From IMG/VR virus record IMGVR_UViG_2541047922_000008: DNA of 18,265 bases, one strand, 5' to 3'. The position numbers were made by a program, and so were the translations under genes. Under the pieces are notes generated by a model, which was given only the letters and a program-made list of their open reading frames with translations, was not told the DNA's origin and made no database searches. Origin of the DNA: a virus. Lineage: Duplodnaviria > Heunggongvirae > Uroviricota > Caudoviricetes. Below are positions 426 to 15,929 of this stretch, piece after piece; within the stretch, counting starts at the first letter, position 1, and each line of letters begins with the position of its first letter.

Positions 426-445
426 CCCGCGCTGCGGGCTTTTTT
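426..445 (+). terminator. putative rho-independent terminator (plus-strand polarity)
   Basis: Stem CCCGC (426-430), loop GCT, stem GCGGG (434-438), then CTTTTTTG. Stem is short and no plus-strand ORF in the window reads into it. Confidence 0.4.
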
Positions 446-666
446 GTGGACGAAACAAAAGTCAGTGCTACACTCATTGACGCCACATCGAGGTGGCTTA
501 TAGATGGAAATGTCACAATGAAAAAAGCATTTGCTGCACTGTTCTCTGGTGGCTTCAACTCAGGCCTTTGCCGGTCGTTGTCAGCACGACAGCGATACTG
601 CCGCTGACGGCTCCCGCTGCGGTGGGCGTTCTGCTGATTCCCGCCCGGGCGGCGGTGGCATTCGTT

Positions 667-691
667 AAAAACAAGGCCGCGAAAGCGGCCT
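667..691 (-). terminator. intrinsic terminator ending the giant-protein operon
   Basis: AGGCCGC-GAAA-GCGGCCT hairpin (674-691) with a GNRA loop, followed on the minus strand by TGTTTTT (667-673). Sits immediately 3' of the 104-aa gene stop at 700-702. Confidence 0.6.
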
Positions 692-699
692 GTGACATG

Positions 700-1014
700 T
701 CACGATAGTTCCGTTTTGTTGAATTCAATTATATCAAGGTCAGAACTTTCGTAATCCTTACCGAATAAAGCAAAACATATCGCGTCAAGTTCTCTCTTAT
801 GTTTGGACGCCCGATCATAATTACCACCCCAACAGCAAATGAATCCACCAAGTACTGCTGATTCAAAAAGTAATGATGCTGCATCAATATGTCTGAACCA
901 GGAGTCTATAAGTAAAGCAGAGAGTGATATTAATGTTCCCCACCCGCCAATCCTTCTCCATTTCTCAGCTTCATATTTAAGAGAAGCAATATATTCAATT
1001 TTATCTCTCGTCAT
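700..1014 (-). CDS. small membrane protein (104 aa, two predicted hydrophobic helices), last gene of the cargo operon
   Basis: ORF with ATG overlapping the upstream stop (TGATG at 1012-1016). Hydrophobic stretches WGTLISLSALLIDSWF and ASLLFESAVLGGFICCWGG. About 35% GC, versus about 50% for the neighbouring genes. Confidence 0.6.
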   Translation of the reverse strand: MTRDKIEYIASLKYEAEKWRRIGGWGTLISLSALLIDSWFRHIDAASLLFESAVLGGFICCWGGNYDRASKHKRELDAICFALFGKDYESSDLDIIEFNKTELS

Positions 1015-3770
1015 CAGTTCCCCACCGCCTTTCCAAAATCCGGTGCTCTACGTGGCGCAATAGCACCCGGTTCCCACCAACTCGTTATGTCGAACTCCCG
1101 TTGCGAGCGGTCCCTTACTCGATCATTGTAACCAGGGTTTGCCATCTCCTGAAGTTGTTGCAATATCAGGTGATTGGTTATCGCTTTCGCATACCACAGG
1201 TTTGCGAATGGGGTGATCATGCGGGCTGTTTTCAGTGCATCGGCACCGAATGATGTTTCTTCACCCTGTAGAGCCTTCTGTGGGTTAGTAATCAGTAATT
1301 TTGTTAACTGCTCTGCAAAGCTCAACACAGGGCCCCCCATAGTGGCACCGATGCTGGAGCCATATTGCGTATGGTCCTGGAAAATAAAATCACCGTAGAT
1401 ACCGAACGAACCACCTTTCAGTAAAGCCTGAACCCATGTGGTTGGTTTTGTCATATCCAGCGGATCATTACCATTTAACAAACTGTTCATCTGGATCGCA
1501 AACATACCAGCAAGAGTTGTTCCCCCGATATATGAGGCCAGAAATTTAATGGCCGGAACGGTGTCCAAATCCCGTGTTCTGTTAACAAGTTGCCGAAATC
1601 CAGCAAATGGGGTTGTTTTGAAGAGCATGAAGCTCTTCATTAACTCGCCAGCATCATCACGGGCATATGTATCAATACCCGTAGCGGTGGTCACAGCATT
1701 GGTCATCTCACCGTGCGTAATTCCCAGCAATTTCTGGGCTGCTTCAGCGCGTGCATTACGAATCATGCGCGTGATGGTCTGCTCAGCCTCAGCGTCGAAT
1801 GCTTCTTTCATCCGTTTCAGGCGTTCTGGAGGGAGATCTCCAAGGGCTGCCAGTGCCTTTTCACTCCCGGCACGAATCCGGGTAATACGGTCTGCCATAA
1901 TGTCGGCTATTACGTTATCGGGCACAGCGTAAATCGCGTCTGGCGTCATCCCCATATGCCCGGCAGTAGTCATCGGCCTGAGTTCTGCCGCTGCCATGAT
2001 GGCCCAGTCCTCATTGCTCCATCCCTTGTTAGCCAGAATGGTTTTATCGGTTCCTTTCATATCGTCCAGCGTCTTAAATTTTCTGGTCAGCTCGCCAATG
2101 TTTTTGTACATCAGGAGACCAAACGACGCTTTGTTTGCGCGGTCCATAGCGATCAGCCCGGACCACTTCAGTGTCTTCTCTGCGAACCAGCCAGTTATGC
2201 CGCGAGACAAGTCAAACCCGCCCATTTTCGAAACCACAGCAGCATGTGAATCCACCAGCAGACCGAGTTCAGCATTCGCCTTTTTGGCATCTCCACTAAA
2301 CAGGTTTTTGATAGTGTTAACGGAAAGCCGCATTCCACCACGGGTAAAGCCCAGCGCCTGCGCATTTGCCCGCATAATTGCCTGGTCGCTGGTTGCTGTC
2401 AGTACGCTGGTGCCAAGCATGGCGCTGGTCATCAGGTTACGCAGACCACCAACTGCTGAAGAGAACACACTCGATGAAGCGACACCATTTAGGCCAGCCA
2501 TTGAGTTGAACATACGGGCAACTAATTTGGCCTCATCCTCCATTTCTTTTTTGCGTTTCCCGCCTGTTACTGCGCGCTTATAGATGCGATCCAGTACCAG
2601 GGAAAAGTTTCTTTCGGCGTCCGGACCAAAGGCTTTAACGACGCCCAAATCCCTGGATGATGATTGCAGGTGCGACATCATCACCCCCACCAGCGGCTGC
2701 TGAGTGTATCGCTCCATATAGGCGAAGTGTGACTGCGCATCCTTGAACGCCATCACCCTGTGCTGAGAACCACGGCTCTTTATTCCTCCGGCTCCCATAA
2801 ATGTACCAGGCTCAATTTTGTTTGCCCCATCAGTGGCCTTCGTTTCAAAGATCGCTTCCAGTGCCTGACGGTACTCGACGTCATTCATAATGCTGCCGTC
2901 AGGATTAACGTAATTGCTGCGATCCTGCGTGTTGTAAGCGTCATCAACCCATTTCTGGCGGGCAAACTCAATCGGTGGCTGGCGACCTGAAAGACGTGCT
3001 GTAGCTTGCTCTGCCACTGGTAACGATGCCAGCCATTCTTCGCGCCCGGCATTGCGAATAAGGTCAGCATCATCCACATATGGCGTATGCCAGTCTTCTC
3101 GCAGGCCTATGTCAAAGCCATTGTCGTTCATCTCATGACGAACACGGCCTGTTACATCCTTCCAAATCTGTGCAATTTTCTTCGCCAGGGGATTCCCGGT
3201 ATCTTCGCCATATATTTCTTTCAGGATCTGGAGTTGTGCAGACTTTGCCGCCTGCCTGTCGAATACACTCCGAAACCGCTGCTCTCCAAGCGCCCTGCTC
3301 TGCTCGAAGAATTTGCGGACGTCATCACCTGCTTTTAGAAGTTCAGCACTGAGCTGACGGGACCAGTCCTGATATGCCCCAATTGCAAGCTCTTCAGCAG
3401 AAGTAACGGAGATATCAGCTTTGTCTCTCGATCGTCGGCCAGCAAAAATAAACTGCTGCAAATTAACAGGTGTCTGCTGATCAGGCGGGATGTTAGCATC
3501 GAGAGTGTCAGTAATTTTACTGATGGCGATCGCATTCTGGGCAACACGCTGTCTTTTCTTGTACACATCATGAACCACACGCTGGCGAACCAGTTCTGCA
3601 GCATCCATGTATGTTTGAGCATCAGGAATACCACTTTTGCCTTCCATTGCATTCTTTCTGTGCACTTGCCGCACAGCTTCTTTGATACGATCTTCGATAT
3701 TTTTCAGCTCATCAGCCTTTGGCTGGCGACCAAGTGTCTGCGCAATAGCTTCAACACATGCCTGTTTCAT
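1014..3770 (-). CDS. giant protein C (about 918 aa), unknown function, Gly/Ser/Ala-rich hydrophobic central region, no P-loop
   Basis: Long ORF. The ORF track starts at a GTG at 3791; I prefer the ATG at 3770, which overlaps the stop of protein B as TAATG (3768-3772), the same junction as between A and B. No Walker A motif seen. Confidence 0.85.
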   Translation of the reverse strand: MKQACVEAIAQTLGRQPKADELKNIEDRIKEAVRQVHRKNAMEGKSGIPDAQTYMDAAELVRQRVVHDVYKKRQRVAQNAIAISKITDTLDANIPPDQQTPVNLQQFIFAGRRSRDKADISVTSAEELAIGAYQDWSRQLSAELLKAGDDVRKFFEQSRALGEQRFRSVFDRQAAKSAQLQILKEIYGEDTGNPLAKKIAQIWKDVTGRVRHEMNDNGFDIGLREDWHTPYVDDADLIRNAGREEWLASLPVAEQATARLSGRQPPIEFARQKWVDDAYNTQDRSNYVNPDGSIMNDVEYRQALEAIFETKATDGANKIEPGTFMGAGGIKSRGSQHRVMAFKDAQSHFAYMERYTQQPLVGVMMSHLQSSSRDLGVVKAFGPDAERNFSLVLDRIYKRAVTGGKRKKEMEDEAKLVARMFNSMAGLNGVASSSVFSSAVGGLRNLMTSAMLGTSVLTATSDQAIMRANAQALGFTRGGMRLSVNTIKNLFSGDAKKANAELGLLVDSHAAVVSKMGGFDLSRGITGWFAEKTLKWSGLIAMDRANKASFGLLMYKNIGELTRKFKTLDDMKGTDKTILANKGWSNEDWAIMAAAELRPMTTAGHMGMTPDAIYAVPDNVIADIMADRITRIRAGSEKALAALGDLPPERLKRMKEAFDAEAEQTITRMIRNARAEAAQKLLGITHGEMTNAVTTATGIDTYARDDAGELMKSFMLFKTTPFAGFRQLVNRTRDLDTVPAIKFLASYIGGTTLAGMFAIQMNSLLNGNDPLDMTKPTTWVQALLKGGSFGIYGDFIFQDHTQYGSSIGATMGGPVLSFAEQLTKLLITNPQKALQGEETSFGADALKTARMITPFANLWYAKAITNHLILQQLQEMANPGYNDRVRDRSQREFDITSWWEPGAIAPRRAPDFGKAVGN

Positions 3771-5830
3771 TATGGGTTCCTCAAGAAGCACGCTGCCGCT
3801 ACAGAATAAACCTTCGATTCGTTCTGGACTGTCTTAATCTGTTCATCCAACTCAGCCAGGAGATCAGAAAGTTTTGTCGGGTTTCCGGTTTCCGGGTGAG
3901 CTATAGTCAGCTCAGGATTGGCAACAGCCATGTCCCTAGCAGCCATAAGGTCATAGCTGTTGGATGAGAGAACCTGCCCTGTATCTGGATCAACGCTGAC
4001 GTCCCCTCTGTGTTCACCAGCCGATGAGAAAGCACTTTCAGCACGAGGGACAGGCGATTCACTAATTGGCTCTGATGATGTTTCATATCTGACACCATTT
4101 TCTTCAAAAACCTTTTGTATTTCATGGTATTGCTCTTGGTAAGTATCAGATATATCTGATCGCAATGGACCATCAAGCCCTCGCGCCATCCCCCCAACAT
4201 TTACAGGCTGACCATCATTAAGTTGCCTGTATGCTTCATCCATGGCGTCAACATGGCTGTTGATGCTCTCATTGCTGGTGTGAAGCACTGGTGACGATTC
4301 AATATCGTAATGAAGCCCCTCATTCAAAATGTGGGCTGCATCAATATCGCTTGGTTTTATTCTTTCCCTCGCCCGGATACCAAAAACTTTTTCTACTGCG
4401 GCTTCCAGTTTCATATTGCGAAGACGCATACTTACGAGTAACCGTAACTGCTCAGGTGTAACGGTTCCAACCTGAATACCACTGTATCTGAATATATAGG
4501 CTTTAAAACCTGAAATAATTTTTTCCCATGATGAAACGCTTGTCTTTAGAGATGGATTTACTGCATGTGCGGCAACTTCTTCAGCGTACAACCACTCAGG
4601 ATATGTTTCAGGGTACTCACCCCTTTTCTTATATTCATAATATTGTGACATCCCATATGCAAATTCAGGATAGTCAGAATGCTTGTTTGCAGATTTAAGT
4701 ACAGCATTAGCTAGCTTTCTGGCCTTCCAGTCAGGGTAATGGCGCTGCTCAAGATGAAGCGCCTCGTGATGAAGGGTTTCTAACAGTTCTTCATGGTCTT
4801 TTAATCCATTAATATTTATTCTTATTATTGGTTCTTTTCCAGAAGCTACTGTCACATGACCTTTATTCAGAAGTATTTCTCCATCACTATTTTTTATTGC
4901 TGGTTCATTAATAAGTTCTATTACTCCTGAATCAGATAAATCACGAACCATTGACTCAATGTTACCATCAGGAGATTGCTGATAATGTTCACCAAAAGTT
5001 GATTTTATTTCTTCTGCAGAAATGTTCGACTCTGTACCATCATGGTTATTATGGGTAGTCAGGTGATGAACGCCACCAAAGACCCCGCCTAAAACGGCAT
5101 CGACTAACATCGCCTGACCGTCAAATACCCGGTACTGTTTTGCCATCTCCGTGTAGCCTTTTTCCTCCAGTGTTGCGCCGACAGAGTAACGGTTCAGTCC
5201 ACCGAATCCGGTGTTGATTGCCACACCTGAGGCAATGCGCGTTGCCAGTGTGGTGCCGACGGCAGCGGGTAAGGCCATACCCACAGCATTGAAAAGGCTT
5301 TGCTGCGTTGCCAGGTTACGCGCCGTAGCCTCGTCTACTCCCTTCCCTTTAAAATCCTGATAGGACTGCTCATACGTAGAACTGAAAGCTGTAGCAGCGC
5401 CGATGAGGGGACCGCCAAACATAGTTGTTCCGATTGCAGGAACAAATTTACCAAGCTCATTTAATACCTCAGCCGCCATTCCCTGACTGCCTGCATCAGG
5501 CTTCACATAGCTGCGGGCATCCTGTAACTGTTTTCCGATCGTGTCGTATGTATCATTCAGTGTTTTGTCAGCATCAGGGAACATCTCCCGAAAAATATTA
5601 ACAGTCGGTGCCACGTCTGCGGTAAATGCCGGATCGCTAATCAGGCGCTTGCTGAATCCGACGGCAGACTGCGCGAGACCGAGAGTCCCCTCCGCCACGC
5701 CGCTCAAAAGTGCAGTACCTGAACCCTGGAAGGGAGTCGGATCGTAGTCTTCTGGCCTTGCTGGGTTGGCAACTGTTTTGTCGTCAATCCATGCCTGACC
5801 TTCTGGAGCCAAAGAAAAAACATCAGACAT
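3770..5830 (-). CDS. giant protein B (686 aa), N-terminal glycine-rich hydrophobic segments plus a single HExxH zincin-type motif
   Basis: Long ORF whose ATG overlaps the stop of protein A (TAATG at 5828-5832). HHEALHLEQ at residues 354-362 (nt 4745-4771). GxxxG-rich hydrophobic stretches across residues about 120-260. No P-loop. Confidence 0.85.
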   Translation of the reverse strand: MSDVFSLAPEGQAWIDDKTVANPARPEDYDPTPFQGSGTALLSGVAEGTLGLAQSAVGFSKRLISDPAFTADVAPTVNIFREMFPDADKTLNDTYDTIGKQLQDARSYVKPDAGSQGMAAEVLNELGKFVPAIGTTMFGGPLIGAATAFSSTYEQSYQDFKGKGVDEATARNLATQQSLFNAVGMALPAAVGTTLATRIASGVAINTGFGGLNRYSVGATLEEKGYTEMAKQYRVFDGQAMLVDAVLGGVFGGVHHLTTHNNHDGTESNISAEEIKSTFGEHYQQSPDGNIESMVRDLSDSGVIELINEPAIKNSDGEILLNKGHVTVASGKEPIIRININGLKDHEELLETLHHEALHLEQRHYPDWKARKLANAVLKSANKHSDYPEFAYGMSQYYEYKKRGEYPETYPEWLYAEEVAAHAVNPSLKTSVSSWEKIISGFKAYIFRYSGIQVGTVTPEQLRLLVSMRLRNMKLEAAVEKVFGIRARERIKPSDIDAAHILNEGLHYDIESSPVLHTSNESINSHVDAMDEAYRQLNDGQPVNVGGMARGLDGPLRSDISDTYQEQYHEIQKVFEENGVRYETSSEPISESPVPRAESAFSSAGEHRGDVSVDPDTGQVLSSNSYDLMAARDMAVANPELTIAHPETGNPTKLSDLLAELDEQIKTVQNESKVYSVAAACFLRNP

Positions 5831-8361
5831 TATTCAACCCTCACGACAATAGCTTCATTGGTTCTGGGATCTGTTGCCCAGCGTCCGCTACCATTTACCA
5901 GCCGATACCGGTTATTGCCGATATTAACTGGTGTGAAGTTTGACACTGCATTTACGTTAAGTCCGGCTTCTTTCAGTGCTTGTTTCGCAGATGTGGTATA
6001 GCGATCTTTGAAAGTAGATTTATCCATGCCGAAAGGCATTACAACGTCGCCGCCATTAAAATCCTTGTATATACCGCCAGTAGCATACTTCACGGCATCA
6101 GCAACAGTGTCTGTATCAGGCATACTGGTTCTTACCGTAGATGCATCACCTGATTGATAAGCTATTCCTGCGTAAGCGGCTTTGAAAAGGCTATAACTGA
6201 TCTGACGTAACTGCGGGTTACGGGCAAATGCGTTACCTACCTGTTTGTCGAAAGCGTCTTTCATCTTATCTTCGCTCGGCAACTGTACCGGAGTTATGCC
6301 CGCATTCTTCATGGCCTTCGTCGGATTCAGTAGTTGGTCACCGGAAAGAATAACCTTTGCAACGTCGTACTTGTTCATCGTCGGCTTATACCCGATGAAC
6401 TGACTATATGGGATCGACGGTCTGGTGTTATCGTACTGATTATCCGGCGTGCCCAGCAGCAGCGCAGAATAGGCTGTTGCCGCACTGTTCGGAGCAATTA
6501 CAGATGCCACCTGCCGTATTGCTGGCGCAGGCAGCTTCTCCCCCATGCTCTGCAACAGTTTAATTGTCTGGTCAACGTTCTGAGTGCCGCGCACCTGCTG
6601 TGCCAGCGCAGCCGCCTCTTCACTGTTGAGGATTGGGGCATTAATTCCCAACGCGCGTAAGCTTTCCTGCGACGAGAAACGGTTAGCCACCTCGGCAGTG
6701 ATGTCGTCAGGGTTGTTGCTGGTGATCGGCTTATAGGCTCCGATTTCCACCGCTGCACTAAACGGATTATTCTGCCTCTGGGTTATTACCTTCGTGGCTG
6801 CCGCCGATACCCGGTCGAATAACTCCGCACGAGACGCATACCCCTCCCCTGTCTCACCAGTATCCGGGCGTAATTGCTCAACATATGCGGTAATGCTGCT
6901 TGTCGGCATGTTGCGGAAAGAGCCTATATACTGTCCGGCGATCTGCAAATTTCTGAACTCGGTATATCGCAGGTTTCCTTCTCTGACACCATAAGCAGCA
7001 ATGAACTCACCCTCACCAGGCGGGTTAGGAAATTCAACGCCACGCATATACGCAGCCGTTGCATCGCGAACCCGGCTTTCGAGCATCGTTCTATATTCAG
7101 CCTGCTGCTGTCTGGCTAATGCATCCGTCTGTCGCAACACGCTGGCCTGATCTGATTCACTTAAAGCATCGAACCAAGCTACACCGGTATAACGTTTATT
7201 TTTTGTCGGTAGCTGAGAAAGCCCCAGTGCGGCACTAACGCCAGCGGCCAATTGCTGATCACTGTACGGCTGACTGCCTTGCTCATGATGAATAATTGCT
7301 TTGCACAGAGATTTCAGTGTGTCAGGATTTGATGCGTCAAGCGGCTGGTCAGGAGTTACACCGAGCTGAGCACATACTGCCCGTATATAAGCATCAGTTT
7401 TATTATCATCACTGGCCGGTGCCCAGCGATTAATTATTTCGCTGATGGTGTCATAACCCTGACGCTGATACGACAGCAAATTGCGACCAAGCGCGCGAAT
7501 ACCGTGTTCAGGGGTTTCGAATTTGGCAAAGCGACCATCATCACCAGTCTGCCCAACCCACGGATTAGTTTTGCTGTATTCAAGATTGCCGGGGTTATTG
7601 TTGCGTATACCGCGGGTACGATCGGAAGAGCCACTATCTGCTACAGCACGGCGAGATCCAGCAGCAGTATCGCTTAACTCGCCGTTTTGCTGTCTTACCT
7701 GAAGATAGTTTGCTCCAATAGCATTTTGAGCAGTTGCTTTTGCTGTTGCTTCTTTAAACTCGATTTTCTTGGCCTGGATTTGCTCGTCGCTCCAGCCATG
7801 CGCAATACCGTAATCCTCAATTTGCTGGAAAGTTTGCGTATTAGCCAATATGTATGCTGCGTTGTCGCCATATAATGCTGAGGCATTTTTACCATTATTC
7901 AGCAGTGTCGCCTGAAACTGGCCTTCTTCGTAGGCATTTATTTGCCCTATCTCGTACCTCCCGGCCTGCGTAGCGAACTGAATACGCTGCTGCTGCGCCT
8001 GCTGCATGAAAGCATTACGAGCCTGTTCATCCGGCAGCGACATAGCCAGTTGTTCGATCTGAGCATCAAACTGCTGTGTATACTCATGGCCTTTTCCAAT
8101 AGCATTTTTCCCTTTCAGGTTAAGCAATCCTGTTTCAGGATTATTCAGCAGATCACTGCCTGTCTGACTGAGTTTAAGGGATGCCTCCTGAACCAAGGCA
8201 ATATTGGCGCGCTGTTTTGCCTGACCAAGAACATCAATTGCCTCTGTCCCTGCCCGAACAAAAGCATCACCAATACCTGGCTGAGAAAACGTCTGCAAGC
8301 CTGCTGACTGAACTCCACGGCTCTCAACCTGGCGTCCGGATACTGTTGGTACGACTGGCAT
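5830..8361 (-). CDS. giant protein A (843 aa), Q/A/N-rich, unknown function
   Basis: Long ORF with ATG at 8361 preceded by an AGGGGG Shine-Dalgarno. Sharply defined block TRGIRNNNPGNLEYSKTNPWVGQTGDDGRFAKFETPEHGIRALGRNLLSYQ at residues 248-299. No P-loop. Confidence 0.85.
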   Translation of the reverse strand: MPVVPTVSGRQVESRGVQSAGLQTFSQPGIGDAFVRAGTEAIDVLGQAKQRANIALVQEASLKLSQTGSDLLNNPETGLLNLKGKNAIGKGHEYTQQFDAQIEQLAMSLPDEQARNAFMQQAQQQRIQFATQAGRYEIGQINAYEEGQFQATLLNNGKNASALYGDNAAYILANTQTFQQIEDYGIAHGWSDEQIQAKKIEFKEATAKATAQNAIGANYLQVRQQNGELSDTAAGSRRAVADSGSSDRTRGIRNNNPGNLEYSKTNPWVGQTGDDGRFAKFETPEHGIRALGRNLLSYQRQGYDTISEIINRWAPASDDNKTDAYIRAVCAQLGVTPDQPLDASNPDTLKSLCKAIIHHEQGSQPYSDQQLAAGVSAALGLSQLPTKNKRYTGVAWFDALSESDQASVLRQTDALARQQQAEYRTMLESRVRDATAAYMRGVEFPNPPGEGEFIAAYGVREGNLRYTEFRNLQIAGQYIGSFRNMPTSSITAYVEQLRPDTGETGEGYASRAELFDRVSAAATKVITQRQNNPFSAAVEIGAYKPITSNNPDDITAEVANRFSSQESLRALGINAPILNSEEAAALAQQVRGTQNVDQTIKLLQSMGEKLPAPAIRQVASVIAPNSAATAYSALLLGTPDNQYDNTRPSIPYSQFIGYKPTMNKYDVAKVILSGDQLLNPTKAMKNAGITPVQLPSEDKMKDAFDKQVGNAFARNPQLRQISYSLFKAAYAGIAYQSGDASTVRTSMPDTDTVADAVKYATGGIYKDFNGGDVVMPFGMDKSTFKDRYTTSAKQALKEAGLNVNAVSNFTPVNIGNNRYRLVNGSGRWATDPRTNEAIVVRVE

Positions 8362-8457
8362 CAGTAACCCCCTGTTTTGAATCGTGTACCAGAATTCATA
8401 AAACCTGATTTAAATAACATTGGCGTCCCTCCGCTTTGATGCTGTACCAGCGATTCA

Positions 8458-8664
8458 TTACTCACCCCCCGATGCAAAACCATTCTGATTAAGCCAGGCG
8501 TTTACGGCATGTCTGACAATCTGCGCCACGCCTGGTAATGGCTGATCAGGGTGATTGTTCACATGGTCGATTCTGTACTGCTTAAGGCGCATCACGGTCT
8601 GTGCATCCAGATGAACGGAACCACCTCTGACATCGCCTGTGTTCAGGTCGTTAATACAATTCAC
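8458..8664 (-). CDS. small protein (68 aa), likely first gene of the giant-protein operon
   Basis: GTG start at 8664 directly after an in-frame TAA, preceded by AAGAGGAA. Lies downstream of an AT-rich putative promoter region (8665-8763) and 96 nt upstream of protein A. Confidence 0.45.
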   Translation of the reverse strand: MNCINDLNTGDVRGGSVHLDAQTVMRLKQYRIDHVNNHPDQPLPGVAQIVRHAVNAWLNQNGFASGGE

Positions 8665-8766
8665 AGTAATTTCCTCTTACTGACTAAACTATGCACATTA
8701 TTGATCGAAAAAAGTGGTAGATAAATATATTTCTATCATAAAAACAGATTGATTGAGTTCAGATCC

Positions 8767-8789
8767 AAAAAAAGCCGGATTGCTCCGGC
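8767..8789 (-). terminator. intrinsic terminator separating the replication module from the cargo operon
   Basis: GCCGGA-GCAA-TCCGGC hairpin (8774-8789) followed on the minus strand by seven T (8767-8773). Not followed by a T-run on the plus strand. Confidence 0.6.
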
Positions 8790-9030
8790 TCTGTGCTTAC
8801 TTCTGGTAGTTACGCCATACTGATTTCCCGATCCCATCTATCCCCATTTCTTTTTCAGTGCGTTTAAGCGACCGTTTCAGGTCTTCTAAATTATCCGGTT
8901 GCTTTGGTGGCCTCTGTGCCTTGCTGGAACATTCCAGTCGTCGCATTGATATGCAATACCGTTCCTTGTCAGTACCCCAACTGCATTACTTCACCCCATC
9001 GCGCCGCCGCTCTTCGGTACAGGGTTTTAG

Positions 9031-9447
9031 TTAGCCTCCGACTCTTCCGTAGTGCTGTTCTGGTGGATTCACATAGCCCCTTTCTTGCAGGTATTCGCGA
9101 ATATCAGACATCAGGAGACGGTTAACCGTGCTCTTGTCTTTTCTCCGGTAAAGGCGTCTGGTGATCATGAAGTAGTTAGCAATGATCTCCGGTATATCCC
9201 TGACGCTGATACATGCTGTATGCTGGTCAATAGCTTCAATCATCTCTTCACGAGTTACAAAAGTCTGGCGTAAACGAGTGATCACACCATGTACATCTGA
9301 ATGATCATTTATACGCTTATTTTGGCGCTTCGCGCTCTCGACTGTGACACTGACAACAATGTCAACTCTTTGTTTTTCCGCAATTTCATCCACAATGTGA
9401 TCACCTGCACGGCGACCATGTGCGTGATCATTTCTTACTATTTCCAT
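9031..9447 (-). CDS. hypothetical protein (138 aa)
   Basis: ORF overlapping the ProQ/FinO gene stop by 20 nt, consistent with co-transcription. No motif recognised. Confidence 0.5.
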
Positions 9448-9925
9448 TCATCTCCTCCAGTAGTTTTCCTGCGTGCGTCTGTTGTAGTGGTGTTACCTCG
9501 CCGCACGGCTGGCCTTTCAGGTCGTAACGCGCGCCACCAGCTACCAGGGCGCGGTAATAGCGCGGAGTCTGCACATAACGCGCCAGCGTTGCGCGTAGTG
9601 TTCCCTGTCCGAGTGAAATACCTCTCGCGGCAATATCCTGTATCAGGTCGTCAAATATCCCCACCTTAAGCGGCTTAGGTGATTCCGGGCTGAATAATTC
9701 AGGCCATAGCTCAATAAGACGGTTAACGCGTCTGCGGTTTTTACGCTGCTGTTTGGTCATACGCCGCCGCGGTGTTGCTCCTGTGAGCTTCTGCTGTGTG
9801 TTCTGGTTATCTGGCATCACTTTATGCGCCGATGTGGTTTTATTCTGCTGCTGCGCCGCCTGTGCTGTTTTCTGCGGCGTGCCGTAAATGCCCTTCGGTT
9901 TTCTGTTTATGGTCAGCTTTGTCAT
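9428..9925 (-). CDS. ProQ/FinO-domain RNA-binding protein
   Basis: [18 protein letters not shown] ... [49 protein letters not shown] tracks the ProQ N-terminal domain (PLKIGIFQDL ... LRSALRLYTSSWRYLYG ... RVDLDGNPCGEL ... ARKQLEE). Confidence 0.85.
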
Positions 9926-9961: not shown

Positions 9962-10387
9962 TTAAAACGGTATCCCGTCCCCGTACGGATCATCGTGCTG
10001 GCCTGTCTGTTGCTTTGCCCTGTTCAGTGCATCAGTAGCCTGCCCCTGCTGGCCTTTTTTGCCGCCCGGTCGCGCCGTTCGCGCACTGATTACGCTGTCT
10101 GCGATAACCTGCCATCCCTGCCTCGTTTCGCCGTTCTGGCCCGTCCACCGGCTCACCTGCATGTTACCGGCCACGCTTACCAGTTCGCCTTTGTGGTGTT
10201 TTGCCAGTGCGTCAGCCTGTCTGCCAAACGCCAGGACGGATAACCACATCGTCGCCGTTCCGTCATCTGCCTGATTGCATGGAAGGGGGACCGCCATACT
10301 CGCCATCGCCATTTGTGTGCCCTTGCTGGTGGTCTTTAACTGCGGGTCAGCCACCAGCCGCCCGTAAGCTGATATTTGCGCCGTCAT
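9962..10387 (-). CDS. ssb: single-stranded DNA-binding protein (SSB-like OB fold with acidic C-terminal tip)
   Basis: Residue pattern (GRLVADPQL ... TMWLSVLAFGRQADALA ... GELVSVAGNMQVSRWTGQNG) parallels E. coli SSB. C-terminal DDPYGDGIPF resembles the SSB DDDIPF tail. GGAGAA Shine-Dalgarno upstream. Confidence 0.8.
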   Translation of the reverse strand: MTAQISAYGRLVADPQLKTTSKGTQMAMASMAVPLPCNQADDGTATMWLSVLAFGRQADALAKHHKGELVSVAGNMQVSRWTGQNGETRQGWQVIADSVISARTARPGGKKGQQGQATDALNRAKQQTGQHDDPYGDGIPF

Positions 10388-10597: not shown

Positions 10598-12724
10598 TTA
10601 ATCTTCTGCTTCAGGCTGGAACATCAGCACGTAAAAAATATGCTGCTTCCCGCCAATCCTGCCGAGCGCCTTTTTCTTGTAACGGCGGTCGCCTCCCGCT
10701 TCCAGCATTCCGGCAGCACTCAACGCGCGGGCAAAGTGAGACGGATTAAATCCCTGTGCTATCTCACCCTCAAACACATGCGGGAACGTGTAAAAACGGA
10801 ACTCGTCATCTTCGTTTCTGATACTCCCCTTTCTGTATCCGGCAAGGTCTTTAATCGGTAAATCACGCTCGTCGCTGTTTGGATAGGGAAGGTATCGACT
10901 GAACCCGAACGACGACAAAAACGCCTCAGCCTGTTCAACCATCTGTTTAAATTCCCTGTTGCCCGTGCCGAATTCCTTCACCCAGGCATTAAAGTTATGC
11001 TGAACTGCATCACGGCACGCCTGAACATCCCAGCCTGTAACATGACCGGAAAGCACAAGCGCGGCCTCCAGTACGGCGAATCTTTCCCCCACACGGTGAA
11101 CCTGCTCGCCGTAGCTCTCCGGTATCAGGTTGCGCCACCGCTCGCGACATGCCCTTACCGCGTCCTTTGCCTCCTGCTGGTGGCCTGCCAGCCATTTAAC
11201 CCACTCACGACCTGCCGCCCCGTGATTTTCTGTCCAGGCATCTTTTAACGCGTCTGCGTGCGCCTTTCCGGTGCTGTATTCGTGAAACTGCGAGGCCTTT
11301 TCCATCGGTACGTTAAGCAGACGGACAAGCTGCCCCGCTTTAATTTTTATCCCTTCCGTTTTGAGGAATGTTTCAACGTCCATTTCTCCGGTGCTGATTG
11401 CCACCGTGCGCCAGTGTTTTATCTCCCTGTTGCCGCCGTCCTTCGCCCCCTGTAATTTCCCGGAACCGTTAAACAGCGTATAGGCTGACGTGGACACCTC
11501 CCGTGCGTTTCCGGCCTGGCCTATTTCATCCAGGGGTAACAGCCCGTCATTATGTGCTTCGGCCTCGTTGGCGATACCTAACGCCGTTCCGTACCAGGTC
11601 AGCCGTTGCGCGTCCGGCTCTCCCCATAAACTTGATGCAATGTTCTGTGTGGTGGTTTTACCTGCTGATGATTGCTCAAAAAGATGAACCCCGAAGCCGT
11701 CAGCACCCACCAGCCCGATTAATGGTGCAGATAGCGATACCGCCACACCCAGCATCATGGACGGATTACCACCAGCCAGCCGTGCCACGGTATCGCGCCA
11801 GCCCTCCGCTGTTCCCGCCACGGAATAGCCATTAACAGCGGCAGTTTTTCCGGTAAACAGGATGGGTTTCTCTGATTCACCAATGACCGAACCGTCCGGC
11901 ATGATGTACGCACCAAAATGCCACCCCGTTGTTGTGCTTAACTGCCATTCCTCATGGTTTCCGCTTAACTGCATCCAGTCAGCCAGGATAGCCCTGTATT
12001 TGCCGTTGGTCGTCACGTTAAGGCCGTGGTCTTTCAGCAACCGCCAGCCGTCACGGTCACCAATGCCTCCGCACGGGACCGCCATTGTAATGACCTCATG
12101 GTTTGCTGGTTTTTTCCAGCGCATTACGCGGTAATGCTCTTTTCCGATTGTTCCTGTTCCCAGTAGTTCAAGCGGAGAACATAACCACGTCTCAGGCCGG
12201 ATAATTTCGCCTGACTGCTTGTCCACTTTGGGCGTTACCCAGAAAACACCATCGACGCGACTTTCAACACGAGGCTTTAATTCGTCATCATAATTTCCGG
12301 TGAAATTTGTCTTCGCCGGAAGGTTGATCACCAGACTGTTACCGTGTTCCGCATCATCCTTCAGTCCAGCCATGCGCGGTGTCCAGTCCTCCGGCTGCTG
12401 ATCAACAAAGCTGCGGTAGCAACGCGCCTCCTTCACACCCGCCACTGCAAGCAGTGTCGCTATCTGTGTAAGGTGCTGCTCTGATATTTCACCAGCACGA
12501 TAAACGCGCACGTAATAGCGCCCTTTGTCGATGATTTGCGTGTCTGCCAGACTCGCCAGTTGTTCCGGTCCAAGAATAACTGGATGTGTATCATCTGCCG
12601 CAATATGCTTTCCGGCCCATTCGCTCCACTCTTTCGCATGTGCCCAGGCATCACTACCCGCAAAGATAATCACCTCCGTCATTTTGTCTTTCGGCTGGTG
12701 CTTTAAATTCGGTGCGCGTTTCAT
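10598..12724 (-). CDS. replication primase/helicase-type protein (P4 alpha-like or DUF927-like P-loop NTPase)
   Basis: 708-aa ORF. Walker A-like FEQSSAGKTTTQ and Walker B-like LLPLDEIG. Position immediately upstream of the iteron cluster. ATGA overlap with the upstream 100-aa gene. Confidence 0.8.
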   Translation of the reverse strand: MKRAPNLKHQPKDKMTEVIIFAGSDAWAHAKEWSEWAGKHIAADDTHPVILGPEQLASLADTQIIDKGRYYVRVYRAGEISEQHLTQIATLLAVAGVKEARCYRSFVDQQPEDWTPRMAGLKDDAEHGNSLVINLPAKTNFTGNYDDELKPRVESRVDGVFWVTPKVDKQSGEIIRPETWLCSPLELLGTGTIGKEHYRVMRWKKPANHEVITMAVPCGGIGDRDGWRLLKDHGLNVTTNGKYRAILADWMQLSGNHEEWQLSTTTGWHFGAYIMPDGSVIGESEKPILFTGKTAAVNGYSVAGTAEGWRDTVARLAGGNPSMMLGVAVSLSAPLIGLVGADGFGVHLFEQSSAGKTTTQNIASSLWGEPDAQRLTWYGTALGIANEAEAHNDGLLPLDEIGQAGNAREVSTSAYTLFNGSGKLQGAKDGGNREIKHWRTVAISTGEMDVETFLKTEGIKIKAGQLVRLLNVPMEKASQFHEYSTGKAHADALKDAWTENHGAAGREWVKWLAGHQQEAKDAVRACRERWRNLIPESYGEQVHRVGERFAVLEAALVLSGHVTGWDVQACRDAVQHNFNAWVKEFGTGNREFKQMVEQAEAFLSSFGFSRYLPYPNSDERDLPIKDLAGYRKGSIRNEDDEFRFYTFPHVFEGEIAQGFNPSHFARALSAAGMLEAGGDRRYKKKALGRIGGKQHIFYVLMFQPEAED

Positions 12725-13023
12725 TTCTTGCCCCTGAATGCGTTAATCATGTTCTTTATTACCTGAATATTTGCCTGTGCTTTCTCTTTACTGGTGGGCT
12801 TACTGCGTGGTACTGCACATACCAGTGAAAAATCACGCCGGAACTGATGAACGGGCATCACACAGTCATAGTCGTACCCTGCGCGGCGGTATGTAATGTG
12901 CCGTTCATACACGGAATTAATAACCACGCTGTCGCCATATTTATCCCGGAAAATATCCCCGATCCTGATTTTCGGGCGAGTCTGTCCGCTGGCATTTAAG
13001 CCAGTAAATTTAATCTTCTTCAT
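12721..13023 (-). CDS. hypothetical protein (100 aa)
   Basis: ORF translationally coupled to the primase gene (4-nt overlap). No motif recognised. Confidence 0.55.
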   Translation of the reverse strand: MKKIKFTGLNASGQTRPKIRIGDIFRDKYGDSVVINSVYERHITYRRAGYDYDCVMPVHQFRRDFSLVCAVPRSKPTSKEKAQANIQVIKNMINAFRGKK

Positions 13024-13025
13024 GT

Positions 13026-13283
13026 TTATTTCCCGGTATGGGGTTCTTCTTTATATTTATGGGCTAACAAATCTGGTAATTGCCTGTATTTATCCTCGGC
13101 AATATATTCAGAATAATCGACAGCACTGTTCAGTATATCTAACGCCGTTTCATGCTCCAGATTCGAAACTATAAGGAACGTTGCTACTTTTAGCATATTC
13201 GCGATATGCAAAAGAGCATCAATTTCATTTTTTGGCGCTTCACTGAATTTTTGCTCCAGAAGAATAAATCGTTCATCACGCAT
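13026..13283 (-). CDS. hypothetical protein (85 aa), AT-rich
   Basis: ORF 2 nt upstream of the 100-aa gene. Markedly AT-rich relative to neighbours. Confidence 0.5.
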   Translation of the reverse strand: MRDERFILLEQKFSEAPKNEIDALLHIANMLKVATFLIVSNLEHETALDILNSAVDYSEYIAEDKYRQLPDLLAHKYKEEPHTGK

Positions 13284-13479
13284 AGTATTCCCCCTGACGG
13301 ATGCGGGCAGTAAATACCATCACGCAGCCAGTCGGGGATTGCTGACGGGCTTCCTGTTCGCTGGCGGCCTCGATGTGTATTACGCGTGGTTGTGCGGTGC
13401 TCAGGGCGATAAAACGCCAGATGTATTTATTCAGGTTGTGCGAGTCCCGCCCTTGCGGGTGTGTGGTATGATTTAACAT
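13276..13479 (-). CDS. hypothetical small protein (67 aa), first gene of the leftward replication operon
   Basis: ATG at 13479 preceded by GAGGTAG. It is the 3' part of the 396-aa track ORF, whose upstream part runs through the operator palindromes and antisense to two better-supported plus-strand genes. Confidence 0.35.
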   Translation of the reverse strand: MLNHTTHPQGRDSHNLNKYIWRFIALSTAQPRVIHIEAASEQEARQQSPTGCVMVFTARIRQGEYYA

Positions 13480-13576
13480 AGCTACCTCGATACGCTTTCT
13501 ATCGTTGGTGGTTAGACGCCCTGCATGTGTTGCGAGCACTGCGGGGCGTTGCTTAATTTGAGCAATGCAACCCAAA

Positions 13577-13616
13577 CTGTGCGCACAGATTAAAATCATG
13601 TGTGCGCACATGTCAA
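13577..13616 (-). promoter_or_regulatory. leftward promoter with palindromic operators
   Basis: Perfect -35 TTGACA on the minus strand (13611-13616). It overlaps the perfect 16-bp palindrome CATGTGTGCGCACATG (13597-13612). A perfect 12-bp palindrome CTGTGCGCACAG (13577-13588) lies at the expected transcription start. A half-site TTGTGTGCGCC sits near 13645-13657. The -10 hexamer is weak (TTAATC). Confidence 0.5.
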
Positions 13617-13684
13617 TACTTAACTTCTCACTTTTTTTGCTGTATTGTGTGCGCCCATCAAATCCATTTAAGTGAGGTGTACCA

Positions 13685-13882
13685 ATGTCTAGCGGAAACA
13701 CAAACAACAAATCAGCAAAGAAAAATATTCGATTCCCGCACGAGCTTATAGATGGGATTGATGCCAGTGTTGAACAAGAAAAATTAACTAATCCTAGTGC
13801 TAATTTTTCCGCATGGGTCTTAGATGCCTGTGGACGCAAATTAAAATATGAACAGCGCCGGAAGGCCAAAGAGCAGGAGTAA
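13685..13882 (+). CDS. small ribbon-helix-helix-like DNA-binding protein (65 aa), candidate repressor
   Basis: GAGGTG Shine-Dalgarno 6 nt upstream. NIRFPHELIDGIDASVEQE fits the Arc/MetJ beta-strand plus helix pattern (R-F-P-x-E-L). Transcribed divergently from the operator-bearing promoter. Confidence 0.55.
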   Translation: MSSGNTNNKSAKKNIRFPHELIDGIDASVEQEKLTNPSANFSAWVLDACGRKLKYEQRRKAKEQE

Positions 13883-13939
13883 CCATCACCAGCGCCGTGG
13901 TGCGGTGAACTGTGGCGCACAGGGTTACAGGTATCTACG

Positions 13940-14137
13940 ATGACTGACAAATCATTAAAGAAATTATCCTCATCCAGGAAAAAACAACGCAAAAATGCGG
14001 TAAGCGAACAAGAACAGGAAAGATTTGCGCCATGTGCGTTTGTCCTTGAGAAGTTCTTAAAAGAGTACAGGCGCACAAAAATGGAATCGCATACCTGGAA
14101 AACATCGCAGTATGGCGATGCTAAAGAGCAGGAATAG
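13940..14137 (+). CDS. small basic protein (65 aa), hypothetical
   Basis: ORF with a weak Shine-Dalgarno. Its last codons and the about 15 nt after the stop repeat the 3' end of the upstream small gene. Confidence 0.4.
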   Translation: MTDKSLKKLSSSRKKQRKNAVSEQEQERFAPCAFVLEKFLKEYRRTKMESHTWKTSQYGDAKEQE

Positions 14138-14227
14138 CCCACCAGCAAGCCAGCACACTGATCACATTGCCCACCAGCCGCAAATCTGGCATTGTTGGCG
14201 ATGCGTTTGATTTCCTTTGTTCCCACT

Positions 14228-14255
14228 GGCGACCTATCCCGGTCGCCTTTGTTTT
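14228..14255 (+). terminator. intrinsic terminator for the plus-strand small-gene transcript
   Basis: GGCGACC-TATCCC-GGTCGCC hairpin (14228-14247) followed by TTTGTTTT. No T-run on the minus strand. Confidence 0.5.
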
Positions 14256-14305
14256 GCCTGTTATCCAGCAACGGGGCGCTTTTTCTTTCTGTAACGTTCG
14301 GATCG

Positions 14306-14863
14306 TTACACATTGCTTTCACCCTCCAGAAAATCAGGCTGATATTTACGCCATAGCGCCCGCTCTTCTCGTTCCAGTGCATCTTTTGCCTCTTTGCATT
14401 GCTGTAACCTGTAACCGCGTTTGCTGGCTTCCTGTTGATATGCAGCCTGACGTTTACTGAAATCATTCAGCATGGCAAACGGAACACCATAACCCCCCGT
14501 TTTGCGGATTGAAGGAATCACCTCGCGGAATACCCAGTTACTGAAACGGTGCGCAAATGTGCCTGGTGTGGAAGCTTTACGGCTGCGGGCGATCAGTTTG
14601 TAGAAACCTGATTCAGAGACAACATTCCAGCTTCTGGCACCACCACGCTTACCGGAATGACCCTCGGTTAAAGCTAGGGTCATTACCTCATCGTTATCCA
14701 GAACTGAAACGGCATCAGTAACATTGCTGATTTCCAGCGCGGCACACACATCAGCGCCAACAAACCACGGCTCGCCGTTGATACTCACTATGCGCACCTG
14801 AATGTCATCGAATTTAATGACAGAGATTTCAGTGCGACCAGCATAAAAGACAGGTTTACGCAT
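14306..14863 (-). CDS. Bro-N domain protein (phage antirepressor family)
   Basis: VIKFDDIQVRIVSINGEPWFVGADVCAALEI matches the Bro-N signature. 8-nt overlap with the upstream gene. Confidence 0.8.
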   Translation of the reverse strand: MRKPVFYAGRTEISVIKFDDIQVRIVSINGEPWFVGADVCAALEISNVTDAVSVLDNDEVMTLALTEGHSGKRGGARSWNVVSESGFYKLIARSRKASTPGTFAHRFSNWVFREVIPSIRKTGGYGVPFAMLNDFSKRQAAYQQEASKRGYRLQQCKEAKDALEREERALWRKYQPDFLEGESNV

Positions 14864-15656
14864 GGCTGCTCACCTCCATGCGGCGGGCTAACCAGCGTTG
14901 CGAAAGGCGAATTAATTCAGCTTTCCGCTGGTGGTAGTCCAGGCCTAACTCAATCAGCGTGATATTGCTCTGCTCAAGGTAAGAAAGGTGCTCAAGCTGC
15001 AACACGCTCATGTGGTCGCGTGGTTCACCTGTGATGCCGTTCGCCTGCGCCCACTGTTTTGCAGTCATGCCACCCAGCACGATACGCGCCAGCATATTAG
15101 CTTCCGTAGTGTAGTGGTGCTGGAGCGTGTTTTTACCCAGTTCAGCCCGGTACGCCTCCAGCGCGGCACACATTGGCTTAAAGTAGCTGGCTACGGTGAT
15201 ACGGGCTTTCAGTTCCCGGCGTAACGCTGCGGAACGTACAGGCGCTACCTTGTGTAGCTCCTCCTCGCATTTGATGAAGTACTGACGAACGGCGCGGCCC
15301 TGTTCGGTGCGTTCGATCATTGCCAGTTCTTTCGCCATATTCAGGGTGAGTAAGTAATCATGAGCAAGCTGCTGGCGAGATTTTGCGCTCGCCGAATTGG
15401 GTGAGGTCAAATATTTGACGACTTCAAAATCTACTCCCTTTTTAAATCCATACTCCTCAATGCGCCCTTTAATCCAATTGGTGAAATCACGGCCTACCCC
15501 GAGCGCATTATGCAACGTTCTAGCGCTAACAATATTGGTTTCACGCCCGCCAATAACGCCGGAAATAACCGGGATAATTTCGCCAAAATTTTGCAGATTC
15601 TGGTTTTCAGGCCGAACGAAGCCCTGCCCCTGTACGGGCGTTTTTCGCAGTTTCAT
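14856..15656 (-). CDS. AntA/AntB-type phage antirepressor
   Basis: IVSARTLHNALGVGRDFTNWIKGRIEEYGFKKGVDFEV and HDYLLTLNMAKELAMIERTEQGRAVRQYFIKCEEEL match the AntA/AntB antirepressor domain. AGGTG Shine-Dalgarno. Confidence 0.8.
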   Translation of the reverse strand: MKLRKTPVQGQGFVRPENQNLQNFGEIIPVISGVIGGRETNIVSARTLHNALGVGRDFTNWIKGRIEEYGFKKGVDFEVVKYLTSPNSASAKSRQQLAHDYLLTLNMAKELAMIERTEQGRAVRQYFIKCEEELHKVAPVRSAALRRELKARITVASYFKPMCAALEAYRAELGKNTLQHHYTTEANMLARIVLGGMTAKQWAQANGITGEPRDHMSVLQLEHLSYLEQSNITLIELGLDYHQRKAELIRLSQRWLARRMEVSSHA

Positions 15657-15731: not shown

Positions 15732-15929
15732 TCAGGCAGCCGTTCCGCGTGATTCGGCAATACGCTGATTGATCCATTCGTCAATTTCACTTTCAACGAA
15801 AGCAATCGCTCGCGAGCCAATTTTAACTGATGCAGGAAATTTACCTTGCCCCATAAGGCGATAAATCCATGCCTTGCTATATCCAGTTCTACGCTGAACT
15901 TCTGTTAAACGAATAAGCGTATTTGACAT
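15732..15929 (-). CDS. alpA: AlpA/Vis-family HTH regulator (excisionase-like)
   Basis: LIRLTEVQRRTGYSKAWIYRLMGQGKFPASVKIGSRAIAFVESEIDEWI is the classic AlpA (Phage_AlpA) pattern. GAGGT Shine-Dalgarno. Confidence 0.85.
   Translation of the reverse strand: MSNTLIRLTEVQRRTGYSKAWIYRLMGQGKFPASVKIGSRAIAFVESEIDEWINQRIAESRGTAA

Follow-up and report, generated by a model that had tools for sequence, protein, structure and literature searches.

A likely phage satellite of Escherichia coli whose only recognised virion genes are homologues of the DNA-ejection protein genes of Uetakevirus podoviruses

The DNA considered here is a stretch of 18,265 nucleotides, hereafter the window, from a Caudoviricetes record of IMG/VR (IMGVR_UViG_2541047922_000008). 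On its minus strand lies a cassette of five genes. From 5′ to 3′, these are orf68, a small leader gene (8458-8664), the genes of three large proteins of 843 amino acids (aa) (5830-8361), 686 aa (3770-5830) and 918 aa (1014-3770; 925 aa if translation starts at the GTG at 3791), and orf104, which encodes a probable small membrane protein (700-1014). The original prediction, made from the letters of the window alone, had described five co-directional open reading frames (ORFs) between two intrinsic terminators, and this description holds, with all five ORFs on the minus strand and hairpins at 8792-8771 and 691-674. It is near certain that the three large proteins are the DNA-ejection (core) proteins of Uetakevirus podoviruses of the epsilon15/phiV10 type, homologous to gp15, gp16 and gp17, respectively. 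The element that carries them is likely a phage satellite resembling the phage-inducible chromosomal islands (PICIs).

A likeness to podovirus ejection, or internal virion, proteins had been suspected from composition. It is borne out by matches to PHROG families over the full length of the proteins and by 68-89% aa identity to gp15-gp17 of epsilon15. The 843-aa protein matches phrog_992 ('head protein') over its full length (E 1e-289), the 686-aa protein matches phrog_1145 with near-complete coverage of the profile (E 5e-137) and the 918-aa protein matches phrog_684 ('virion structural protein'), again over its full length (E 2e-295). When phage genomes were searched with tblastn, the largest protein was found to be 89% identical, over all 924 residues, to its counterpart in Salmonella phage epsilon15 and close relatives. 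Identities to epsilon15 amount to 79% for gp15, about 68% for gp16 and 89% for gp17. In the case of gp16, aa 1-277 are 84% identical and aa 480-686 are 74% identical, the middle being replaced. At the DNA level, homology to epsilon15 extends from the exact ATG of gp15 to the stop codon of gp17. The order gp15-gp16-gp17-small gene, overlaps included, is the same in epsilon15 and in prophages L003, L004 and L095. In epsilon15, gp15 and gp17/16 have been placed in the packaging/injection device, and internal proteins are reported to be ejected during infection (PMC12391199, PMC8954989). Full-length homology to characterised virion ejection proteins, one of the two findings sought as evidence for a prophage remnant, was therefore obtained. 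Moreover, the proteins belong to a known phage family (PHROG 992, 1145, 684), and the proposal of an undescribed one is abandoned.

The gp15 homologue carries a peptidoglycan-hydrolase (endolysin/transglycosylase-like) domain at aa 249-403 (7153-7617, minus strand). This segment matches an 'Endolysin' of the PDB (7q47_A, E 2e-16) and the N-terminus of Gp29, a phage protein of 1,295 residues (9vvp_L, E 4e-39), and aa 243-364 match 'tail injection transglycosylase' and endolysin PHROG families. The endolysin and Gp29 matches fit a cell-wall-cutting domain typical of podovirus ejection proteins. PDB sequence searches gave no match for the gp16 and gp17 homologues, and neither Pfam nor NCBIfam has a match for any of the five cassette proteins. 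A new defence or counter-defence system had also been envisaged. All five proteins were compared with PADLOC-DB v2, where zero families matched at E <= 0.1; no evidence for such a system was obtained, and this candidate was rejected.

Three of the junctions are overlaps of stop and start codons, as announced and as read directly from the sequence: TAATG at 5828-5832 and at 3768-3772, and TGATG at 1012-1016, by which orf104 is translationally coupled to gp17. Identical overlaps are present in phage epsilon15, so that those of the cassette were inherited from the phage operon; the fixed stoichiometry that had been deduced from these overlaps alone is not supported. No Walker A motif ([AG]xxxxGK[ST]) occurs in the cassette proteins, in agreement with the original prediction. 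Of the glycine-zipper-like hydrophobic segments, the Gly/Ala-rich stretches are indeed present, but clear membrane helices are not, the large proteins having no strong transmembrane-like window. The small membrane protein that had been expected, orf104, is a probable one; it has two hydrophobic stretches, though only a single 19-residue window lies above 1.6 on the Kyte-Doolittle scale. Homologues of orf104, 80-84% identical, are found directly after gp17 in Uetakevirus prophages and phage contigs (L009, L022, L023 and others, other genera included), which makes orf104 the occupant of a variable gp18 slot. The allele in this slot is tied to the type of cassette; it encodes 98 aa in the phiV10-type cassette described below.

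The centre of the gp16 homologue deserves separate mention. While the N- and C-terminal parts are conserved, a hypervariable centre of about aa 278-479 (4394-4999, minus strand) has been replaced. No DNA homology to epsilon15 is detected between 4362 and 5059, and the GC content of the centre is low (0.41). Forms of 521, about 630 and 686-690 aa exist in the gp16 family. The one HExxH motif of the cassette, correctly predicted, is HEALH at aa 355-359 (nucleotides 4754-4768). The sole other long form, a 690-aa protein (P0003), conserves HHEALH and is encoded amid ordinary phage genes, after gp14-gp15, which shows that the insert is not peculiar to islands. An exhaustive HMMER search of 1.84 billion representatives with the central 221 aa recovered only a 74-aa fragment of the same protein, and the HExxH region has no match in Pfam or NCBIfam. 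The AlphaFold2 model, built from 15 homologues, is unreliable (mean pLDDT 39). The centre would thus be an orphan domain, with a metallopeptidase and an injected effector as candidate roles.

The upstream part of the cassette has another origin. The orf68 product belongs to phrog_4934 (E 2e-31) and has no counterpart in epsilon15 or in the prophages examined. It is part of the island backbone and is common to capsid-bearing E. coli PICIs. Together with its leader, orf68 forms a region of 350 bp (8428-8779) that is 90% identical (89.8% for the leader) to the region preceding a fusion gene for a ClpP protease and the major capsid protein in other E. coli islands with integrase, AlpA and primase, among them the PICI L007, where a 68-aa gene with 90% aa identity to orf68 precedes the capsid gene. 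In E. coli islands, the orf68 leader is followed either by this capsid gene or by the ejection cassette; the position is therefore a slot for virion modules and not a defence hotspot. The AT-rich leader/promoter region (8665-8770, minus strand) contains no sigma-70 consensus and no promoter-like match, from which the cassette is presumably activator-dependent. Its upper boundary is an intrinsic-terminator-like hairpin (8771-8792, minus strand) with a 9-bp stem and a T-run, which terminates the upstream replication/regulation operon. The hairpin closing the cassette just after orf104 (674-691, minus strand) also serves a convergent small gene on the plus strand. Near the distal end of the island, a 48-bp stretch (133-180) is 87.5% identical to L007 10385-10432, likewise near a distal end, in unrelated surroundings.

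The slot was also surveyed in more distant islands. In a divergent lineage, which occurs in Citrobacter youngae, Phytobacter and Enterobacter, this slot holds gp15-gp16-gp17-gp18. The backbone of this lineage comprises an integrase (65% identical), Bro-N, Ash, SSB and a primase of the Toprim-DUF927 type (61% identical). Starting from this lineage, 80 IMG/VR loci were collected whose primase is 52-100% identical to its own, and the ORFs downstream of the primase were clustered and annotated. Ejection, tape-measure or hub-type genes are carried there by 55 of the 80 loci, a fraction inflated by the fact that IMG/VR selects for viral hallmark genes. Three-protein modules of the Uetakevirus kind occur in 7 of the 80, two further types included. 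A P22-type set occurs in 8, with phrog_651, phrog_598 ('DNA ejection'), phrog_917 ('released from the phage upon host infection') and phrog_770 ('DNA transfer protein'). A tape-measure protein is encoded in 17 loci, 15 of which also have a Neck1-like gene; baseplate-hub genes are present in 23, in some cases along with spike and lytic tail protein genes, and a small terminase gene in 4. The maps inspected showed neither a capsid nor a portal gene. The qualitative pattern remains clear: what these islands carry is the genome-delivery part, taken from phages of different types. As for individual examples, P22-type sets (161/224/492/664-701 aa) occupy the same position at L123 15640-20275 and L112 13523-18181. 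Further modules lie at L119 12113-16139, L127 10284-13407 and L134 15065-19890; the types met there are tape-measure plus Neck1-like, hub plus spike-like plus tail-fibre-like, and lytic tail protein plus hub plus small terminase.

The limits of the island itself could be defined. The window is 99.9% identical to a region of E. coli 82.0311 located between yqeG and tRNA-Gly/actS. A metagenome-assembled E. coli contig (L176) provides the empty site, in which the 3′ end of tRNA-Gly is joined directly to the far flank. By comparison with it, the element is 19,283 bp long and is inserted at the tRNA-Gly site. Both of its ends carry 18/19-bp direct repeats of the 3′ end of tRNA-Gly, TTGGAGCGG(G)CGAAGGGAA. 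The window falls short of the whole element on both sides, by about 830 bp distally and by about 180 bp next to the integrase. A 139-aa hypothetical gene annotated by RefSeq across the flank, the attR repeat and the island (L002 11145-11564) is probably an annotation artefact. The operon had been thought to sit at the very end of the island. Actually, about 1.5 kb of island DNA lie distal to it, so that the cassette is internal and is not a fused neighbour.

These limits bear on the idea that a prophage remnant was fused beside the island, which had been named as the explanation that would undo the original prediction. It is contradicted by a cassette internal to a cleanly bounded island and starting exactly at the gp15 ATG, by the fusion to a PICI-type leader, and by recurrence on different backbones, at different attachment (att) sites and in different genera. 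As predicted, the island has no capsid, portal or terminase gene recognisable by RefSeq annotation or by Pfam and PHROG scans. Neither are there tail, holin, endolysin or lysis genes, the three core-protein genes being its only virion genes. Even gp13 and gp14, which precede gp15 in every phage copy, are absent from the island. Given the absence of gp13, gp14, capsid, portal, tail and terminase genes, the intact reading frames, and a homology to phages that runs from the gp15 ATG and stops after the small moron described below, the remnant was rejected.

Recurrence was assessed in 5,426 complete E. coli genomes. The orf68-gp15 junction is present in 45 of them, at two or more att sites and with different integrases. 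Most of these (37 of the 45) carry the epsilon15-type cassette of the window at 96.5% identity or above. This cassette is also found at yicC/dinD, in an island that has another integrase, and between islands with different integrases it is 97-100% conserved. Its closest E. coli prophage matches reach 78%, with none above 80% DNA identity in the whole set of genomes; it is thus in islands that the epsilon15-type cassette, which lacks a close E. coli prophage counterpart, is maintained. In the four other species matched in the genome collection, gp17 always lies within complete prophages, so that the island context is a minority one, though recurrent.

In other strains, the same glyU backbone bears a second allele, of the phiV10 type, whose products have 837, 600, 824 and 98 aa. 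The swap between the two alleles spans 705-6826 of the window. Over 7.4-7.6 kb, the phiV10-type island allele is 95-97% identical in DNA to the block from gp15 to the moron in E. coli prophages of the phiV10 type, and its proteins are 96-99% identical to the prophage copies. Two arms of prophage type flank the exchanged part. The first, gp15 codons 1-511 (6827-8361, minus strand), has 85-92% DNA identity to E. coli Uetakevirus prophages and 99% to the phiV10-type island allele. The second, of about 280 bp (428-704, plus strand, phrog_14503), contains the moron, a small signal-peptide gene (518-668), and has 94-98% identity to these prophages. Such a layout is expected for cassette exchange by homologous recombination. 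The moron gene itself (53 aa, WP_000708858, phrog_14503 'membrane associated protein') is convergent with the cassette. It is broken in the window by an 11-bp deletion within the signal peptide. Strain 82.0311 and Uetakevirus prophages have it intact, and several other island copies lack it.

All the inspected copies of the cassette have intact reading frames over 7.6 kb. The ratio of nonsynonymous to synonymous substitution rates (dN/dS) is 0.05-0.27 between island copies and 0.04-0.15 with respect to phage copies, and the cassette proteins are thus under purifying selection. Separately, an IS4-like element, ISVsa5, was observed within the cassette of E. coli TUM9803 (NZ_CP135671.1 125961-135395). 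These data may be confronted with the view that the cassette is a neutral passenger, namely a piece of a Uetakevirus late operon captured by recombination, hitch-hiking in the island and functionless there. The 95-97% DNA similarity of the phiV10-type allele to contemporary prophages would agree with it, as would homology arms that permit repeated gene conversion from prophages, the insertion sequence in the cassette of TUM9803 (H130), and the frameshift of the adjacent moron in the window. However, a passenger would hardly be expected to keep its 7.6 kb of reading frames open in all the copies inspected, nor to have its breakpoint exactly at the gp15 start codon, next to an island-specific ribosome-binding region and leader. 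The epsilon15-type cassette lacks a prophage counterpart above 80% and is yet almost invariant between islands. Furthermore, the same gene set occupies the same position in independent island lineages of other genera, and other delivery modules occupy it in relatives. We consider a neutral passenger improbable.

The gp15 homologue is a chimera of the two types. Its aa 1-511 are 89-96% identical (96, 89 and 93% in successive segments) to the E. coli phiV10-type prophage L004, compared with 65-82% to the epsilon15 type. Conversely, aa 512-843 are 84% identical to epsilon15 and 24% to the phiV10 type. None of the prophages sampled has such an inter-type chimera. The gp15 dome of T7 houses the N-terminus of gp14 (PMC8954989). 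By analogy, it is plausible that the conserved N-terminal half of gp15 is the docking part and that its C-terminal half forms, with gp16 and gp17, a co-adapted unit that can be exchanged.

Links with a possible helper were sought through the gp15 5′ segment, which is found in 412 genomes and in two copies in 27. A second copy is present in at least 17 of the 39 island genomes listed, versus about 6.8% of island-free genomes. The odds ratio is about 8 (Fisher p = 3e-9) when the clonal relatedness of the genomes is ignored, and Uetakevirus prophages show an enrichment of about 8-fold in genomes with the island. In strain SCEC020022 (NZ_CP032892), whose epsilon15-type island is the one at yicC/dinD, the second copy belongs to a complete phiV10-type prophage adjoining guaA, and island and prophage share only the two arms. 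The gp16 and gp17 proteins of an epsilon15-type island and a phiV10-type prophage are 28-30% identical. Two island genomes amount to 38.6 kb, close to one Uetakevirus genome (39.1-39.7 kb); the relevance of this match depends on the packaging mode of the helper.

The chimera may also be understood in terms of interference or defence. Ejection proteins of the island would dock, through the gp15 N-terminus, in the procapsids of a helper or an invading Uetakevirus and form mixed cores with phage gp16 and gp17, yielding non-infectious particles. In a variant, orf104 may block the entry of incoming phages. The cassette would then be an immunity module poisoning assembly rather than a transfer device. 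A gp15 with a helper-type N-terminus and a heterologous C-terminus would suit such a poison, and epsilon15-type islands do co-reside with phiV10-type prophages that have distant gp16 and gp17. A small membrane protein is tied to each cassette type. Satellites and PICIs with functions interfering with virion assembly, the Tai systems, are known (PMC11364771). Against this stand the lack of PADLOC matches and the phiV10-type island proteins, which at 96-99% identity to the prophage copies would hardly be able to poison. The poison would also be a costly one, with three full-length proteins totalling 2,447 aa under purifying selection, whereas known interference proteins are small. Finally, the complete P22-type and tape-measure/hub sets of related islands suggest supply rather than sabotage. 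Altogether, interference seems unlikely as the main role, although it is compatible with the reading that we favour, in which the cassette serves the transfer of the island.

A further explanation starts from the homology itself. With 1.5-7.6 kb in common, the island could recombine into a replicating helper and be packaged as a cointegrate, or it could act as a reservoir of ejectosome alleles for phages. The two arms common to prophages and the clear swaps of whole cassettes on one backbone speak for it, together with the lack of a recognisable packaging signal or small terminase (TerS) in the island. However, the exact fusion of the operon to a PICI leader is left unexplained, and so are the conservation of the reading frames even where homology to the resident prophage is limited to 1.5 kb, the recurrence of unrelated delivery modules (P22-type, tape-measure) in related islands, and the presence in some of them of their own TerS. 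Little weight is therefore given to this explanation.

The rest of the island was assigned by means of Pfam, PHROG, Rfam and RefSeq annotation, all genes named here being on the minus strand unless stated otherwise. At one end is a P4-type tyrosine integrase (17051-18265; Phage_integrase/Arm-DNA-bind_3). An int-alpA RNA motif (16939-17006; Rfam RF02996, 46.9 bits, above the gathering threshold) is located between the integrase gene and a gene for a 267-aa coiled-coil protein. Then come AlpA (15732-15929; Phage_AlpA), two antirepressor-type genes, AntA/AntB (14856-15656) and Bro-N (14306-14863), DUF4222 (12721-13023), a DUF927 primase (10598-12724; phrog_1139), SSB (9962-10387), ProQ/FinO (9428-9925) and orf138 (9031-9447). 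Residues 57-127 of orf138 match an anti-repressor PHROG (E 2e-26) and residues 5-68 weakly match a terminase PHROG (E 2e-10). The protein has no Pfam match and does not resemble the TerS encoded by a related island; it is possibly a packaging or regulatory protein, to judge from these matches.

Several other features of the backbone were noted. A PerC-family regulator gene (about 8800-9030, minus strand) lies directly upstream of the terminator that bounds the cassette, and its annotation shows a frameshift in all the island copies inspected. The co-resident Uetakevirus prophage has an intact PerC-family gene of its own near the integrase. A 'frameshift' conserved in this way may be genuine, or the gene may be mis-annotated. 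The 396-aa ORF at 13276-14466 (minus strand) is probably spurious. RefSeq places there an Icd-like gene, at the 3′ end of the ORF, and two small YlcI/YnfO-type genes on the plus strand; the region varies among island copies. The antirepressor region (14306-15656) is a second variable spot, where Rha-family and GIY-YIG nuclease genes elsewhere replace or extend AntA/AntB and Bro-N (L008 27575-29593, L005 21406-23390).

Considering the identity of the proteins, the discreteness and recurrence of the island, the purifying selection, the exchange of alleles with prophages and the co-occurrence with them, our preference goes, by a modest degree of confidence, to a PICI-like satellite of Uetakevirus phages that supplies its own ejectosome proteins to particles built by the helper. 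The cycle may be imagined as follows. A Uetakevirus helper, resident or incoming, would enter lytic growth, possibly with the assistance of the AntA and Bro-N antirepressor-type proteins of the island. The island would be excised by Int and AlpA and replicated with the DUF927 primase and SSB, as its gene content suggests. The operon led by orf68 would then be turned on from its leader, which in related E. coli PICIs is the one driving the capsid gene. If the chimera is a guide, the 511 N-terminal residues of gp15, of helper type, would dock on the portal/gp14 core of the helper, and the epsilon15-type C-terminus would recruit the gp16 and gp17 of the island. Helper-built particles containing island DNA would thus carry an ejectosome specified by the satellite, two copies of the island (38.6 kb) filling a 39-40-kb head. 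Podovirus core proteins are established to digest peptidoglycan and to build a trans-envelope channel, and the ejectosome would do so in the next cell. The pay-off would be control of the entry step, for instance into cells that a helper-type prophage protects against ejectosomes of its own kind, or independence from the allele of the helper. This part is speculation. Control of DNA entry is a plausible benefit, and a satellite must often enter cells already carrying its helper. In references cited by PMC11364771, superinfection-exclusion proteins of prophages target the entry apparatus, for example HK97 gp15 acting against the tape-measure/PtsG route.

Several points weigh against this satellite model. 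Expression of the cassette, packaging, incorporation into virions and selective benefit are all inferred, as are, from gene content, excision and replication of the island. Beyond the cassette arms, no pac/cos-like or promoter sequence is common to the island and Uetakevirus prophages, and the leader upstream of orf68 (8665-8800) shares no 12-mer with these prophages. Genes for the redirection of packaging or the remodelling of capsids (TerS, Rpp, Ppi, Cpm-like) were not recognised in the island. More than half of the island genomes may be devoid of a resident Uetakevirus, and related clones may contribute to the association with prophages; the selection of loci by IMG/VR enlarges the share of delivery modules. 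The phiV10-type alleles, nearly identical to those of prophages, would confer no obvious advantage as an alternative ejectosome. Lastly, part of the low dN/dS could result from selection in phages before a recent transfer.

In full-text literature searches, no description of satellites with ejection, core or tape-measure genes was found. The protein family and the kind of backbone are known from phages and satellites, respectively; it is their combination, a likely satellite whose sole virion genes are those of ejection proteins, of which these searches gave no description. Such islands are probably mis-scored as prophage fragments or as plain PICIs. PICI calls of SatelliteFinder in E. coli sometimes correspond to intact Uetakevirus prophages (PMC10121019). 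It is tempting, though tentative and in our estimation somewhat short of an even chance, to regard the island as a member of an unrecognised class of satellites carrying the genome-delivery device of their helper, that is, ejectosomes in the case of podovirus helpers, of Uetakevirus type (gp15-17) here and of P22 type (gp14/7/20/16) in relatives, and tape-measure, baseplate-hub and spike proteins in the case of long-tailed ones.

This reading would have several consequences. Since delivery proteins pass into the recipient together with the DNA, entry would come under the control of the satellite, which could thereby bypass helper-type superinfection exclusion or entry blocks of the host, or co-inject effectors such as the HExxH insert of gp16. 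Known satellite strategies bear on capsid size, capsid building, packaging specificity and helper gene expression; DNA entry would be a new point of piracy. Such a satellite would also offer a natural system for distinguishing the portal/gp14-docking part of podovirus core proteins from the exchangeable parts of the distal channel, the joint being marked by the chimeric gp15 at residue ~511. One could likewise ask whether entry-blocking immunity is specific to the type of ejectosome and whether whole cassettes move between satellites and phages. Some sequenced E. coli strains harbour the island together with a complete Uetakevirus prophage, which makes the system testable.

It remains to situate the island among known systems. 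With the epsilon15/phiV10-type phages, the cassette has in common the protein families, their order and sizes, the overlapping stops and starts and the peptidoglycan-hydrolase domain of gp15. In the phages, however, the block follows gp13 and gp14 (T7_gp14 family) in a full capsid-tail operon, whereas in the island it stands alone behind a PICI leader gene and its gp15 is an inter-type chimera. T7 gp14/gp15/gp16 and P22 gp7/gp20/gp16 are comparable as internal virion proteins, presumed to be expelled, that cut peptidoglycan and form a trans-envelope channel, and the upstream neighbour of the Uetakevirus block, gp14, belongs to the T7_gp14 family. Nevertheless, gp15-gp17 have no detectable sequence similarity to the solved ejection proteins of T7 or P22.

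The Gram-negative PICIs resemble the island by the association of integrase, AlpA and primase, by integration at a tRNA or another specific site, by a size of ~10-20 kb and by a downstream operon related to the virion. Described PICIs carry modules for capsid-size redirection, packaging redirection or complete capsids; in contrast, the only virion genes here are those of ejection proteins. Compared with capsid-forming PICIs (cfPICIs), the island lacks its own major capsid protein, protease, portal and head-tail connectors, though a relative with the orf68 leader has a protease-capsid fusion gene. With the P4-like satellites, it shares a P4-type integrase with an arm-binding domain, AlpA, a large primase, an Icd-like gene and an antirepressor-type gene, to be compared with P4 epsilon. 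Unlike in P4, no psu, sid or delta homologue was detected among the island ORFs by annotation, Pfam or PHROG, and the cargo, which is not of the defence type, lies outside the psu-int defence hotspot. A precedent is provided by SaPIbov5 Ccm and SaPI CpmB, satellite-encoded homologues of helper virion proteins that co-assemble with helper components (PMC8569155). These act on the size and shape of the capsid, whereas the homologues encoded by the island, some of them nearly identical to those of the helper, belong to the genome-delivery apparatus.

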